NCBI GenBank assembly: GCA_036825195.1
Contig: DAISYQ010000013.1
Coordinates: 4,286 to 68,285, forward strand
Length of the DNA: 64,000 nt
Reading direction: 5' to 3'
From: Syntrophales bacterium
Lineage (GTDB): Bacteria; Desulfobacterota; Syntrophia; Syntrophales; UBA2210
Shown here: positions 6,513 through 62,800 of the stretch, one piece after another
How positions within the stretch are numbered: position 1 is the stretch's first letter
Layout of the letters: each line of letters opens with the position of its first letter
Made by a program: the position numbers and the translations under genes
Notes under the pieces: generated by a model
Database searches by the model: none
What the model saw: only the letters and a program-made list of their open reading frames with translations
What the model was told of the DNA's origin: nothing

Positions 6513-6593
6513 AGCCGGCAGGAACGGCAGCCGGTTCACGCCTCTGTAACCTGTCCGAACAGAAAAAATATAGATCATATAAAAGACAATCTT

Positions 6594-6708
6594 TGAACTG
6601 AACAGTGAGCGCATTCCCCGCTGCTTGCGGCGGGGTTAGCGAGTGAATAAAGATACATTTTCCTTAACAGTCGGAGATCCCCCGTAACTTGTTGCGGGGA
6701 GCTTCAAT
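6594..6708 (+). repeat. 115-nt double-hairpin element, left copy
   Basis: 9 substitutions and no indels against 61373-61487 by manual alignment. Two 8-bp GC stems, each capped by a CTTG loop. Confidence 0.9.
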
Positions 6709-59816: not shown

Positions 59817-60560
59817 CTATCGTTTTCCTTTGAGATAATCGTCAATATCTTTTCTTAAAACCTCAGTGGAGGGATTAAGCCAACCAAATCGTTCAAAAAA
59901 CCATACTACAACATCAAGCGAATACTGAGCGCTGTTTGCTATAAGAGCCCCACTATCAATAGCCCAAGTTTTCCCAAGAGAATCTTCGTTAGCAGCATAG
60001 TATGCGGACCAAGCCCGATTCCAGTCAGTTGTCAGTACAAAACCTTTGATTTTATTCAGTTGAATACTTATATTTACTTCCCCTTTATATACCTCTGCTT
60101 GGCATAATCTTGCTGCAAACTCAATTATCTCAGTTGCACAGAAAATGAAGTTCATTATAGATATGAATCCTGGGACTTCGTCCCAATTAATGTGGCCAAT
60201 ATGGGACAGATGAACAGCGGTTTGTTGCTGTAATTTTTCTCTCCATCTCTCTTCAGTAGCTTCTCTGACGCTGGACAAATGGAGGAACTGTGTGCTTTGA
60301 TAAAATCTCCAATACTCGAGATGGCTCATGAAACTCGACCATGAAGCAACCCATTTAGCGCCATGACCTCTCTCTTCATCACGGTTGCTTAGATGTGGAA
60401 AGTCCCACCCTCGTAGCCGAACTCTATTCTTCTCGACAATTTGAAAGCACTCACTCAATGTAGGGATGGCTTCCTCTGAATAGTTCTCCGGGCGAAAATT
60501 GACTCGCCAGTGAGGGTAGGCCAAAACATTGACAGGAAGTTCGGTTTGGGGAGTCGTCAT
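59817..60560 (-). CDS. hypothetical protein, partner of the AlbA_2-like gene
   Basis: The ATG overlaps the upstream stop (ATGA). 247 aa with no family recognised. Lower G+C than the flanks by eye. Confidence 0.6.
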   Translation of the reverse strand: MTTPQTELPVNVLAYPHWRVNFRPENYSEEAIPTLSECFQIVEKNRVRLRGWDFPHLSNRDEERGHGAKWVASWSSFMSHLEYWRFYQSTQFLHLSSVREATEERWREKLQQQTAVHLSHIGHINWDEVPGFISIMNFIFCATEIIEFAARLCQAEVYKGEVNISIQLNKIKGFVLTTDWNRAWSAYYAANEDSLGKTWAIDSGALIANSAQYSLDVVVWFFERFGWLNPSTEVLRKDIDDYLKGKR

Positions 60561-61189
60561 AATCCCTCCAATTCATCATCAAATGCTTGAGTGCTACTTT
60601 GCGATGGGACGAAACCAATACGACGAGATGTTTCAACCATTCTTCGTGCTCGCTTTTCTGCGGCGAGTTCTAAGAGATCATCTATCTCCTGCGCATTTGT
60701 TACCTTTTTTGTTTGTGGCTTACCAGGTGGTCTAATGTAGACTTCCCCTACACATAACAGGTTTATTTTCTCTGGACCGTTCTTCTTACAGATATAGGGA
60801 GTATTAGCAAATTCAAGTACTTGAAATGCAAGAAACTCTTTTTCGTTCCGATATTTGATGCGTACTATTTCAATCTGCATTGGGGGAGACGAGTATTTGT
60901 TAATCGCATCGATGATATTGTCAATGTCATAAGTGCCCAAATGATCTGGTTCAATACCACTCAACTCCCAGTCGTCATCATTTTCGGAAGCTCCGATGAT
61001 AATGACACCACCGTCACGAAGATTACCCATCGCCATCACAGTCCGAATTAATTGCCACTTGAGGGTATCCCACACAGCTGATTGCTTGAAATCAATTGCT
61101 TGGGATTCTTGACAACGATCGAGTGCGCTATACACTCTGTCGTGCAATTGCTGATATCCAGGCATGTCTGATGTTGGAATTGTGCCCAC
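60557..61189 (-). CDS. AlbA_2 / Schlafen-like putative nucleic-acid-binding domain protein
   Basis: ESQAIDFKQS ... VMAMGNLRDGGVIIIGASEND ... GEVYIRPPG fits the AlbA_2 pattern E...EFK...AfaNt.GG.liiGv...vyiR. GTG start with an AAGGAGA RBS. Confidence 0.7.
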   Translation of the reverse strand: MGTIPTSDMPGYQQLHDRVYSALDRCQESQAIDFKQSAVWDTLKWQLIRTVMAMGNLRDGGVIIIGASENDDDWELSGIEPDHLGTYDIDNIIDAINKYSSPPMQIEIVRIKYRNEKEFLAFQVLEFANTPYICKKNGPEKINLLCVGEVYIRPPGKPQTKKVTNAQEIDDLLELAAEKRARRMVETSRRIGFVPSQSSTQAFDDELEGL

Positions 61190-61372: not shown

Positions 61373-61487
61373 TGAACTGAACAGCGCGCGCATTTCCCGC
61401 TGCTTGCGGCGGGGTTAGCGAGTGAATAAAAATAAATTTTCCTTAACAGTCAGAGATTCCCCGCAACTTGTTGCGGGGAGCCTCAAT
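61373..61487 (+). repeat. 115-nt double-hairpin element, right copy
   Basis: Direct-orientation copy of 6594-6708 with 9 substitutions and no indels. Stem substitutions keep pairing. Confidence 0.9.
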
Positions 61488-61615: not shown

Positions 61616-62800
61616 CTAATCTTTCGATTGAATAATCTGTATCGCCGATCCCATGAGTCGGAAGGGCTGTATCTTCGATTTGGTCTGGTTGATGGTTCCT
61701 GCCAGGTACAGATCGTAGTCGACTGAATAGTAGAGGAACGAGCCGGAGGAACCTGAGTGGCCCCATAGCGGCGGTATCTTTATTACCATACGTATAAGCC
61801 GGGGAAGCTTGAAGTACATGGTCCCGTACCCGTATTCAAGCGGAAACTGCAATGTGTGCCAGTTGTGCATCAACCGCAGCGTCTCGGGACGGATCAGTTT
61901 CCCCCCATTGAGGGCTTTGAGGAAGGTGATACACTCCTGCGCCGTGGAGATAATGCCGCCATCGGCCCAGTACGATCCGTTCGTGCGGATCTCGGAGATG
62001 TTCCTGTCGCCATAAAACACGTCCGCCGGAGCGGCCGTCGCCTTTGACCGGGGCTGAGAAAGTCCGACCAGCCAGGTATGATCAAGGCTCAGCGGACGGA
62101 AAAAGAACTCTTCGAATACGACATGAAGCGGTTTGCCGGTTATCTTCTCGATGATCTTCCCCAGTAACTGAAAATTGGTGTCCGAATAGGAGGCATCCGT
62201 CCCCGGCGGAAAATTCGGCTTCAGTTTGGTGCGCGCCCACTCGATCGTATCATCGACGGACCACTTTCGCGCCGGGTCTTCCAGGAACATTTCGAAGAGG
62301 CTCTTTCCCCCCTCGGGTTTTTCGATGTAGTAGTCGGCTATCCCCGACGTGTGCGACAGCAGTTGCCGGATGGTAATTTCCCGCGAATAATCCTTTCCCT
62401 TATAGATATGGATACCGTCGATCAAATCATCGGATAGATATTGTGCCATAGGATCATTCAGGGAAAGCTTCCCCTCTTCGTACAGGCGCATGACGGCCGT
62501 GGCGGTAAAGAGCTTGGTGATGCTGGCGGTAGAGAACGGGGTATCCGCGGTCATCGGCACCCCGCCGTCCTGCCGGGCGACACCGGCCGCGCCCGTCCAT
62601 GAAAACGATCCGTCACCCTTCATTACGGAGAGGACGCAGTTGTGTATTGACGTGTCTTCCGCCACGAAATCGGAAACCAGAGAGGCCAACTCGTGATTCG
62701 GGTCACCAAGGGGTGAGGCTGTCCGTCTCGATTCCATTATCTGCAGCACCGCAATGACAAGCAATATCAGCATGCAGACCGCTATGATTATCCGTCTCAT
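61616..62800 (-). CDS. serine hydrolase (beta-lactamase class C / esterase family)
   Basis: N-terminal TM/signal, STASITKLF (SxxK) motif and a YSDTN (YxN) motif. Confidence 0.85.
   Translation of the reverse strand: MRRIIIAVCMLILLVIAVLQIMESRRTASPLGDPNHELASLVSDFVAEDTSIHNCVLSVMKGDGSFSWTGAAGVARQDGGVPMTADTPFSTASITKLFTATAVMRLYEEGKLSLNDPMAQYLSDDLIDGIHIYKGKDYSREITIRQLLSHTSGIADYYIEKPEGGKSLFEMFLEDPARKWSVDDTIEWARTKLKPNFPPGTDASYSDTNFQLLGKIIEKITGKPLHVVFEEFFFRPLSLDHTWLVGLSQPRSKATAAPADVFYGDRNISEIRTNGSYWADGGIISTAQECITFLKALNGGKLIRPETLRLMHNWHTLQFPLEYGYGTMYFKLPRLIRMVIKIPPLWGHSGSSGSFLYYSVDYDLYLAGTINQTKSKIQPFRLMGSAIQIIQSKD

Follow-up and report, generated by a model that had tools for sequence, protein, structure and literature searches.

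The window, i.e., the whole stretch of 64,000 nucleotides analysed here, contains two full-length copies of a short intergenic element, which are listed in Table 1 together with their parts and neighbours. The left copy is part of the 5′ leader of a TPM-domain gene (Pfam PF04536), to which it is sense; it ends 13 nt upstream of this gene, as was stated in an earlier note on this DNA, with the ATG at position 6722. The right copy is antisense to both of its neighbours. The earlier note had described two copies of 115 nt with nine substitutions and no indels, each carrying two GC-rich hairpins capped by CTTG. This description was confirmed, as alignment of the two copies gives 9 differences over 115 nt with zero gaps and the CTTG loop is present in four of the four hairpins. 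The likeness is bounded by TGAAC on the left and by CTTCAAT on the right. Substitutions in the stems do preserve pairing, the two copies differing there by C-G versus T.G pairs. Neither hairpin is followed by a T-run, in agreement with the previous statement that they are not terminators.

Table 1. Position of the two copies of the element, of their structural parts and of neighbouring genes in the window.
Feature	Position	Strand	Remark
Left copy, full length, 115 nt	6594-6708	+	Boundaries based on the 35-copy alignment with flanks and on empty-site comparisons
P1, 5′ strand ACTG	6597-6600	+	Pairs with CAGT 6668-6671; covariation
Hairpin 1	6610-6641	+	Covariation (helix 2)
Hairpin 1, lower stem CGC/GCG	6610-6612 / 6639-6641	+	Followed by internal loop ATT/TTA
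Hairpin 1, upper stem CCCCGCTG/CGGCGGGG	6616-6623 / 6628-6635	+	CTTG loop 6624-6627
P1, 3′ strand CAGT	6668-6671	+	Separated by one base from the lower stem of hairpin 2, on its 5′ side
Hairpin 2	6673-6705	+	Covariation (helices 3-6)
Hairpin 2, lower stem GGAG/CTTC	6673-6676 / 6702-6705	+	Followed by internal loop
Hairpin 2, upper stem CCCCGTAA/TTGCGGGG	6680-6687 / 6692-6699	+	One T.G pair; CTTG loop 6688-6691
Right terminus AAT	6706-6708	+	Last bases of the conserved ...TTCAAT end; element/target boundary good to 1-2 nt (A/AT)
AlbA_2/Schlafen-domain gene	60557-61189	-	Neighbour of the right copy
Right copy, full length, 115 nt	61373-61487	+	Antisense between two minus-strand genes
Right copy, P1	61376-61379 / 61447-61450	+	The two strands of the helix
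Right copy, hairpin 1	61395-61402 / 61407-61414	+	CTTG loop
Right copy, hairpin 2	61459-61466 / 61471-61478	+	CTTG loop
Beta-lactamase-family gene	61616-62800	-	Neighbour of the right copy

A decayed cassette array is located 80 bp from the left copy, which prompted a comparison with integron attC sites. In attC arrays, the cassettes are bounded by the core sites RYYYAAC and GTTRRRY. The left copy has the ends TGAAC.../...CTTCAAT instead, and copies of the element occur singly, scattered among housekeeping genes throughout the genome. An identity as attC site was therefore rejected.

Read along the + strand, the element consists of (T)TGAA, a variable stretch of 4-7 nt, CAGCGAGCGCATT, hairpin 1, TTAGCGAGCGAAT and an A-rich linker, followed by CCTTAA-CAGT-C, by GGAG-ATT-hairpin 2-AG-CTTC and finally by AA(T). 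Both hairpins are built alike, with a short lower stem, an internal loop that has ATT on its 5′ side, a GC upper stem of 8 bp and the CTTG loop. They are directly oriented on the same strand, hairpin 1 at a distance of 17-19 nt from the left end, hairpin 2 at 7-9 nt from the right one. In the left copy, the direct repeat AGCGAG(C/T)G flanks hairpin 1.

From the substitutions, the earlier note had deduced selection on a folded single strand and had proposed an analysis of covariation. In 40 diverse copies, 16 of the 24 pairs vary on both sides, and 89.9% of the paired cells are able to pair, against 81.4% after shuffling, a value that was reached by none of 500 shuffles; controls in which the partner was slid along the alignment gave 38-60%. 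Helix 2, in hairpin 1, has 93.8% of its cells paired and both-sided changes in five of its eight pairs. For helices 3-6, in hairpin 2, these values are 86-97% and seven of twelve. A third covarying helix, P1, is formed between the left terminus, from the last A of TGAA into the first element bases, and the segment that immediately precedes the lower stem of hairpin 2 on its 5′ side. Across the subfamilies, it occurs in a fixed register as ACTG/CAGT, ATTG/CAAT, ACCG/CGGT, ATCTG/CAGAT, ATCC(C)/(G)GGAT and ACATG/CATGT. Among its 60 variable cells, 46 pair, compared to 32.9 ± 2.9 in shuffles, none of 10000 reaching the observed number. Selection on a folded single strand is thus borne out, with covarying pairs in both hairpins as well as in P1. 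On the linker strand, P1 and the lower stem of hairpin 2 are separated by a single base, from which it may be inferred that the 5′ and 3′ termini are brought side by side.

Uncompensated changes in the stems are unevenly distributed, G.T being found 92 times and A.C 24 times, while the ratio of C>T to G>A in unpaired columns is only 1.29. This points to the + strand as the strand that is kept foldable, although the copies are interrelated and the asymmetry seems supportive rather than decisive. The folding energy of the single sequences is only modestly better than that of shuffles for the two window copies (z -1.3 and -2.3, + strand) and lacks significance when taken alone; the evidence for structure is comparative, not thermodynamic.

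An alignment of 35 copies with their flanks breaks sharply at both ends. The left-flank motif (T)TGAA is present in 88-100% of the copies, GAA having served as the alignment anchor; directly before this anchor T is found in 53% and T in 88% at the two successive positions, farther upstream the sequence is random, and after GAA the variable bases of the element follow. At the right end, TTCA is followed by A (93%), T (79%) and then random sequence. The termini form an inverted complement of 5 nt, TTGAA...TTCAA. No target-site duplication was detected: in 77 copies, direct repeats of 2-6 nt were absent whatever boundary offset was chosen. In the genome from which the window originates (G000), orthologous empty sites opposite filled sites in relatives read TGAA|AT (L031 compared with contig C1), TGAAT|AA (L125 with C42) and TGCAT (L035 with C39), the filled sites showing TGAA followed by the element at this place. 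These sequences suggest that TGAA is the pre-existing target and that the variable bases belong to the element. In the left copy, TGAA at 6594-6597, preceded by T at 6593, is accordingly probably pre-existing target sequence. As the genomes compared for empty sites are 15-30% diverged, the junctions are good only to 1-2 nt. Within these limits, insertion is directly 3′ of (T)TGAA and the element ends in TTCAA(T).

While the earlier note reported the element as present twice, the two window copies are two of about 29 in their own genome, and hundreds exist in relatives. Searches with BLAST, nhmmer and a covariance model identified 12 full-length and approximately 17 partial copies in the assembly of 3.49 Mb (24 matches by BLAST, 29 non-overlapping ones by nhmmer), nearly all of which lie between ORFs. 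Within the genus, none of the 13 genomes lacks the element, and within the family it was detected in 18 of 24. Covariance model R1 detected the family in 58 of 151 genomes, representing 30 of the 62 genera sampled from the order. Among close relatives, the number of copies ranges from 0 to more than 128, the highest number being that of G014 with at least 128 copies (128 matches to a left-end 23-mer). In G011, 24 right ends are exact 25-mers, i.e., these copies are near-identical. The search for further copies that had been recommended thus yielded dozens to more than 128 of them in relatives. According to the earlier note, dozens of scattered copies lacking covariation would indicate a plain repeat; the copies are indeed dispersed by the dozen, but covariation is present.

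The exact 19-nt core of the element, with 18 specified bases, was found in public metagenome-assembled genomes (MAGs) titled Syntrophales, Syntrophaceae, Desulfobacterales, Desulfobacteraceae, Desulfobulbaceae, Desulfosarcina and others. Copies are also present on contigs binned to Bacteroidales or Bacteroidota MAGs (L175:6751-6866, L220:1341-1409), due to either mis-binning or horizontal spread beyond the Desulfobacterota. Viral contigs contain no exact match to the left-end core. The family is not described in the papers that were searched.

The orientation of the copies was compared with replication in G011, a complete Syntrophales MAG chromosome of 2,586,994 bp (OY761459.1), in which 41 right-end and 6 additional left-end matches define 47 copies. 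In this chromosome, dnaA is located at 1,008,020 and its antipode at about 2.30 Mb. Positive GC skew was found at 1.3-2.2 Mb, and the stretch that runs from 2.34 Mb across 0 to 0.52 Mb has negative skew. Between 1.217 and 2.202 Mb, all copies are in '+' orientation except for one at 1,607,093; from 2.31 Mb through 0 to 0.98 Mb, all are in '-' orientation. The + strand of the element is therefore the leading-strand sequence, i.e., the lagging-strand template, in 46 of the 47 copies. With respect to genes, copies between co-directional genes are sense in 17 cases and antisense in 9, and all 9 antisense copies obey the replichore rule. This indicates that the copies are oriented by replication and not by transcription. 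A weaker bias in the same direction is observed in G000, where 22 of 29 copies (76%) follow it as judged by local skew, with five of five copies '+' on contig C2 and three of three '-' on contig C1. It is also weaker on contig 1 of G036, a member of another family, with 25 '+' and 12 '-' copies (68%); of the 20 windows sampled from this contig, 18 have positive skew and the other two a skew near zero. The pattern fits single-stranded DNA at the replication fork and not a transcript. From the two possibilities left by the earlier note, folded RNA or single-stranded DNA, the latter is thus supported, while the former is disfavoured by the antisense position of the right copy and by a sense-to-antisense ratio of 17:9 next to a replichore rule followed by 46 of 47 copies.

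Several groups of small mobile elements resemble this family. Members of the IS200/IS605 family have subterminal hairpins with guide sequences 5′ of the hairpin foot, insert 3′ of a target of 4-5 nt without duplication, and are oriented according to the lagging-strand template (PMC5027513, PMC3201880, PMC3333891). Palindrome-associated transposable elements (PATEs) are ORF-less derivatives of IS200/IS605 (PMC3119063, PMC10055086) and are mobilised in trans (PMC10055086). Like PATEs, the present element is gene-less, falls within 50-250 bp, has a subterminal hairpin near each end with both hairpins on the same strand, inserts beside a fixed motif of 4-5 nt without target duplication, and requires mobilisation in trans. 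It also shares with PATEs and IS200/IS605 the location of its top strand on the lagging-strand template (PMC5027513). Unlike for PATEs, however, an IS200/IS605 element with matching ends is lacking from every genome examined, neither TnpB nor omega-RNA was found, and the genome with the highest copy number, G014, has no detectable Y1 gene. The internal pairing is different as well. In IS608, each guide pairs with its own end, whereas here a Watson-Crick helix connects a segment next to the right-end hairpin with the left terminus. The left terminus covaries with this segment 5′ of the foot of hairpin 2, and the right terminus provides CTTC for pairing with GGAG, a geometry unlike that of IS608.

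A second likeness is to REPs, BIMEs and REPINs, which are high-copy intergenic GC hairpins with compensatory changes as well (PMC3333891, PMC6006769). For REPs, processing in single-stranded form by a Y1 HUH protein has been proposed (PMC3333891, PMC6006769), and RAYT-like genes occur in G000 and in most relatives. Three features set the family apart: the foot of the hairpin lacks GTAG/GTGG and has ATT, preceded by GCGC or GGAG; the hairpins are direct, with the polarity ATT-stem-loop-stem, and do not form an inverted REP/iREP doublet; and the unit is delimited by defined outer ends and inserts at a target motif. Moreover, no REPtron carries the family, as the RAYT-like gene of G000 is flanked by a different repeat, GGGACAGCGCCC. 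The element hence fails one defining test of each group, having no ends in common with a parent IS on the one hand, and no GTAG foot, inverted doublet or REPtron on the other.

Taken together, one-strand subterminal hairpins, a fixed 5′ target, the absence of duplication, the pairing of the termini and the lagging-strand-template polarity suggest a non-autonomous single-strand DNA transposon. We consider it probable, at roughly 0.6, that the family consists of mobile, non-autonomous DNA repeats about 115 bp long, which transpose in single-stranded form and are widespread in Syntrophales and other Desulfobacterota. It is best filed among the small hairpin-bearing single-strand mobile repeats, as REP/PATE-like. 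The element would move at the replication fork by 'peel and paste', like IS200/IS605 and PATEs. It would be mobilised in trans by a putative HUH-type single-strand endonuclease that binds the two hairpins, which is the weak point of the model. The sequence CAGT-C-GGAG may act as a splint, the first half of which pairs with the 5′ terminus and the second half with the 3′ terminus. Such a splint would set the two cleavage sites side by side, analogous to the guides 5′ of the hairpin foot in IS608. Effects on neighbouring genes, such as the supply of a TGA stop codon or a contribution to the 5′ leader at the TPM gene, would be a by-product. Counting against this reading are the lack of a cognate enzyme or autonomous parent, the weaker strand bias in G036 and G000, the placement of P1 that differs from IS608, the short inverted repeat TTGAA...TTCAA and the uncertainty of 1-2 nt at the junctions.

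The search for the mobilising enzyme and a parent element covered several types. No Y1 locus (PF01797) in G000, G003, G009, G011 or G023 has family ends within 1.5 kb, and G014, which has the most copies and is 97% complete, has zero PF01797 matches. Y1 genes are present in 35 of 41 relatives, whether the element is present or absent, and co-occurrence is uninformative because these genes are nearly ubiquitous. TnpB was not detected in five genomes, nor was an IS91-type Y2 transposase in a search that had no positive control. At the left-end-only sites of G011 and at 80 public loci, a long form was sought and only ordinary, truncated or diverged copies were encountered. A gapped pattern of left end and right end gave no match in 301 genomes, although this was a very narrow test with an allowed gap of 400-430 nt only. 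The search for an autonomous parent is generally limited by the incompleteness of MAGs.

The sole intact Y1 gene of G000 is RAYT-like (G000:C11:48974-49636). Its orthologues are flanked by GGGACAGCGCCC-type repeats too, and no RAYT-like locus has a family copy within 1.5 kb. Four intact RAYT-like proteins are encoded in G011, by genes near 61.8, 120.0, 1675.1 and 1693.5 kb. The encoded protein has 220 aa with an HVH motif and RYVENNP (L053:1342-2150, corresponding to G000:C11:48845-49653). Three direct copies of ATAGGGACAGCGCCCTTT precede the gene and one inverted copy is located 2 nt past its stop codon; the 12-mer core of ATAGGGACAGCGCCCTTT has about 250 matches in G000 (up to 2 mismatches). 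This gene with its ATAGGGACAGCGCCCTTT copies is the REPtron of a different repeat family. In addition, G000 contains a broken classical IS200 tnpA with internal stop codons, whose own flanking hairpins are unrelated to the family (L054/L055, G000:C16:15030-15385).

IS200-like sequences adjoin copies of the family in two cases. An intact IS200-type element with a TnpA of 147 aa and its own hairpins abuts the TTCAAT end of a family copy (L058:1382-2000, G009:C7), and a second IS200-like tnpA is situated 300 bp from a family copy in L059. Both were rejected as parent since their hairpins are unrelated; their adjacency reflects either chance or an attraction of IS200 insertions by hairpin repeats. 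Another candidate transposase, the gene inside the sole inverted copy pair of G011, was discarded as well, as its N-terminal sequence appears to resemble a ROK-type glucokinase.

The presence of at least 128 young copies in the 97%-complete G014 along with the absence of a PF01797 match has suggested a further possibility, namely a separate type of single-strand DNA transposon, in which the internal Watson-Crick splint CAGT-C-GGAG would serve to align the termini. Its enzyme would not be a recognisable IS200/IS605 TnpA, RAYT, TnpB or IS91 transposase. This is an unlikely reading, but the family would be of greater interest if the mobilising enzyme is indeed not a known Y1 protein.

Polarity with respect to replication can also be explained without a preferred mode of insertion. 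The family may be a chromosome-architecture repeat selected by the host, i.e., a polar site for a DNA-binding or DNA-processing protein of the fork, gyrase or FtsK type, or a hairpin target of small nucleases such as Ssn, in which case the orientation would be kept by selection. The near-perfect replichore polarity in G011 and the failure to find a transposase are compatible with this, and the unpaired blocks AGCGAGCG are conserved more than the stems, as expected for protein recognition. REPs are indeed known to bind IHF, Pol I and gyrase (PMC6006769). Architectural selection should, however, maintain polarity, which is weak in G036 and G000, and even spacing of the copies or conservation of their positions between species is largely absent. 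The distribution is patchy, with the family present in 58 of 151 genomes and copy numbers of close relatives ranging from 0 to more than 128. In addition, near-identical copies occur in single-genome bursts such as the 24 exact 25-mer right ends of G011, and orthologous sites in relatives are empty. Even under architectural selection, spread to new sites still implies mobility. As the primary explanation, architecture is therefore improbable.

A role as structured RNA has a low probability too. The copies would then be a multi-copy small RNA or a cis-acting mRNA element (a leader, stabiliser or processing site) that was multiplied by duplication and retained on account of its RNA fold. In line with such a role, the loops would be CUUG, which is known as a stable tetraloop in RNA, three helices covary strongly and G.U-type pairs are tolerated on one strand only. 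The left window copy is part of a 5′ leader, and in G000 copies between co-directional genes are sense in 12 cases and antisense in 4. On the other hand, both neighbours of the right window copy are encoded on the opposite strand. Of the 26 copies that co-directional genes flank in G011, 9 are antisense, and yet 46 of 47 copies follow replication; copies are, moreover, found at every kind of gene junction. The unit has neither promoter nor terminator, the hairpins being followed by no T-run. The Rfam scan that had been suggested matched no family: nothing reached the gathering score in the whole window, and with E values up to 10 the best sub-threshold matches (E 2.5-7) were unrelated. At individual loci, the single-strand mobile repeat may have a secondary role as RNA.

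Classical MITEs, such as Correia/NEMIS, ERIC, RUP and Nezha, are bounded by long terminal inverted repeats, show target-site duplications and form a single long hairpin. The family shares with them that it is small, non-coding, intergenic and structured, and that it can give stop codons or join leaders. A cut-and-paste MITE moved in double-stranded form by a DDE transposase, with TTGAA...TTCAA as short terminal inverted repeats and with hairpins that are only incidental, would suit the typical size and intergenic dispersal and the 5-nt inverted complementarity of the termini, but is very unlikely, as there is no target-site duplication (no 2-6 nt repeat at any offset in 77 copies), the inverted termini are limited to 5 nt, the two hairpins are direct instead of inverted and covary, and replichore polarity and one-strand G.T tolerance are unexpected for a double-strand mechanism with symmetric ends.

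What the present analysis adds is the polarity with respect to the replichores and the helix proposed as a terminal splint. With 46 of 47 copies in one orientation relative to replication, the family offers a clean natural case of replichore-polar insertion, and its copies can be used as markers of replication direction in fragmented genomes. Since P1 at the left terminus and the lower stem at the right terminus are tied to one internal segment, they provide a testable model for the presentation of cleavage sites to a single-strand endonuclease. The family further explains many of the 'structured intergenic elements' flagged in genomes of Syntrophales and Desulfobacterales, and its recognition prevents copies from being mistaken for riboswitches or small RNAs. 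Moreover, the repeats break MAG assemblies. In G014, many left-end matches are located within the first 220 bases of contigs, and the repeat evidently breaks short-read assemblies of MAGs such as this one.

Some copies extend into genes. Overlap with the 3′ ends of genes was observed at L117:1592-2682 (G011:1607091-1608181) and L059:626-925, where the element encodes the protein tails ...ELNSERIPRCLRRD on a glucokinase-like ORF (L117) and ...ELNSERIPRCLKRG on a membrane protein (L059). In other copies, the TGA of TGAAC is the stop codon of the upstream gene. Lastly, single-hairpin mini-forms about 51 nt long were seen at L125:1587-1637, in L139 (reverse strand) and at L043:1501-1542, in which both termini are kept and the linker is absent. 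Their junctions are of two kinds, a hairpin-1 type and a hairpin-2 type, suggesting that deletions between the repeated arms of the hairpins have recurred.
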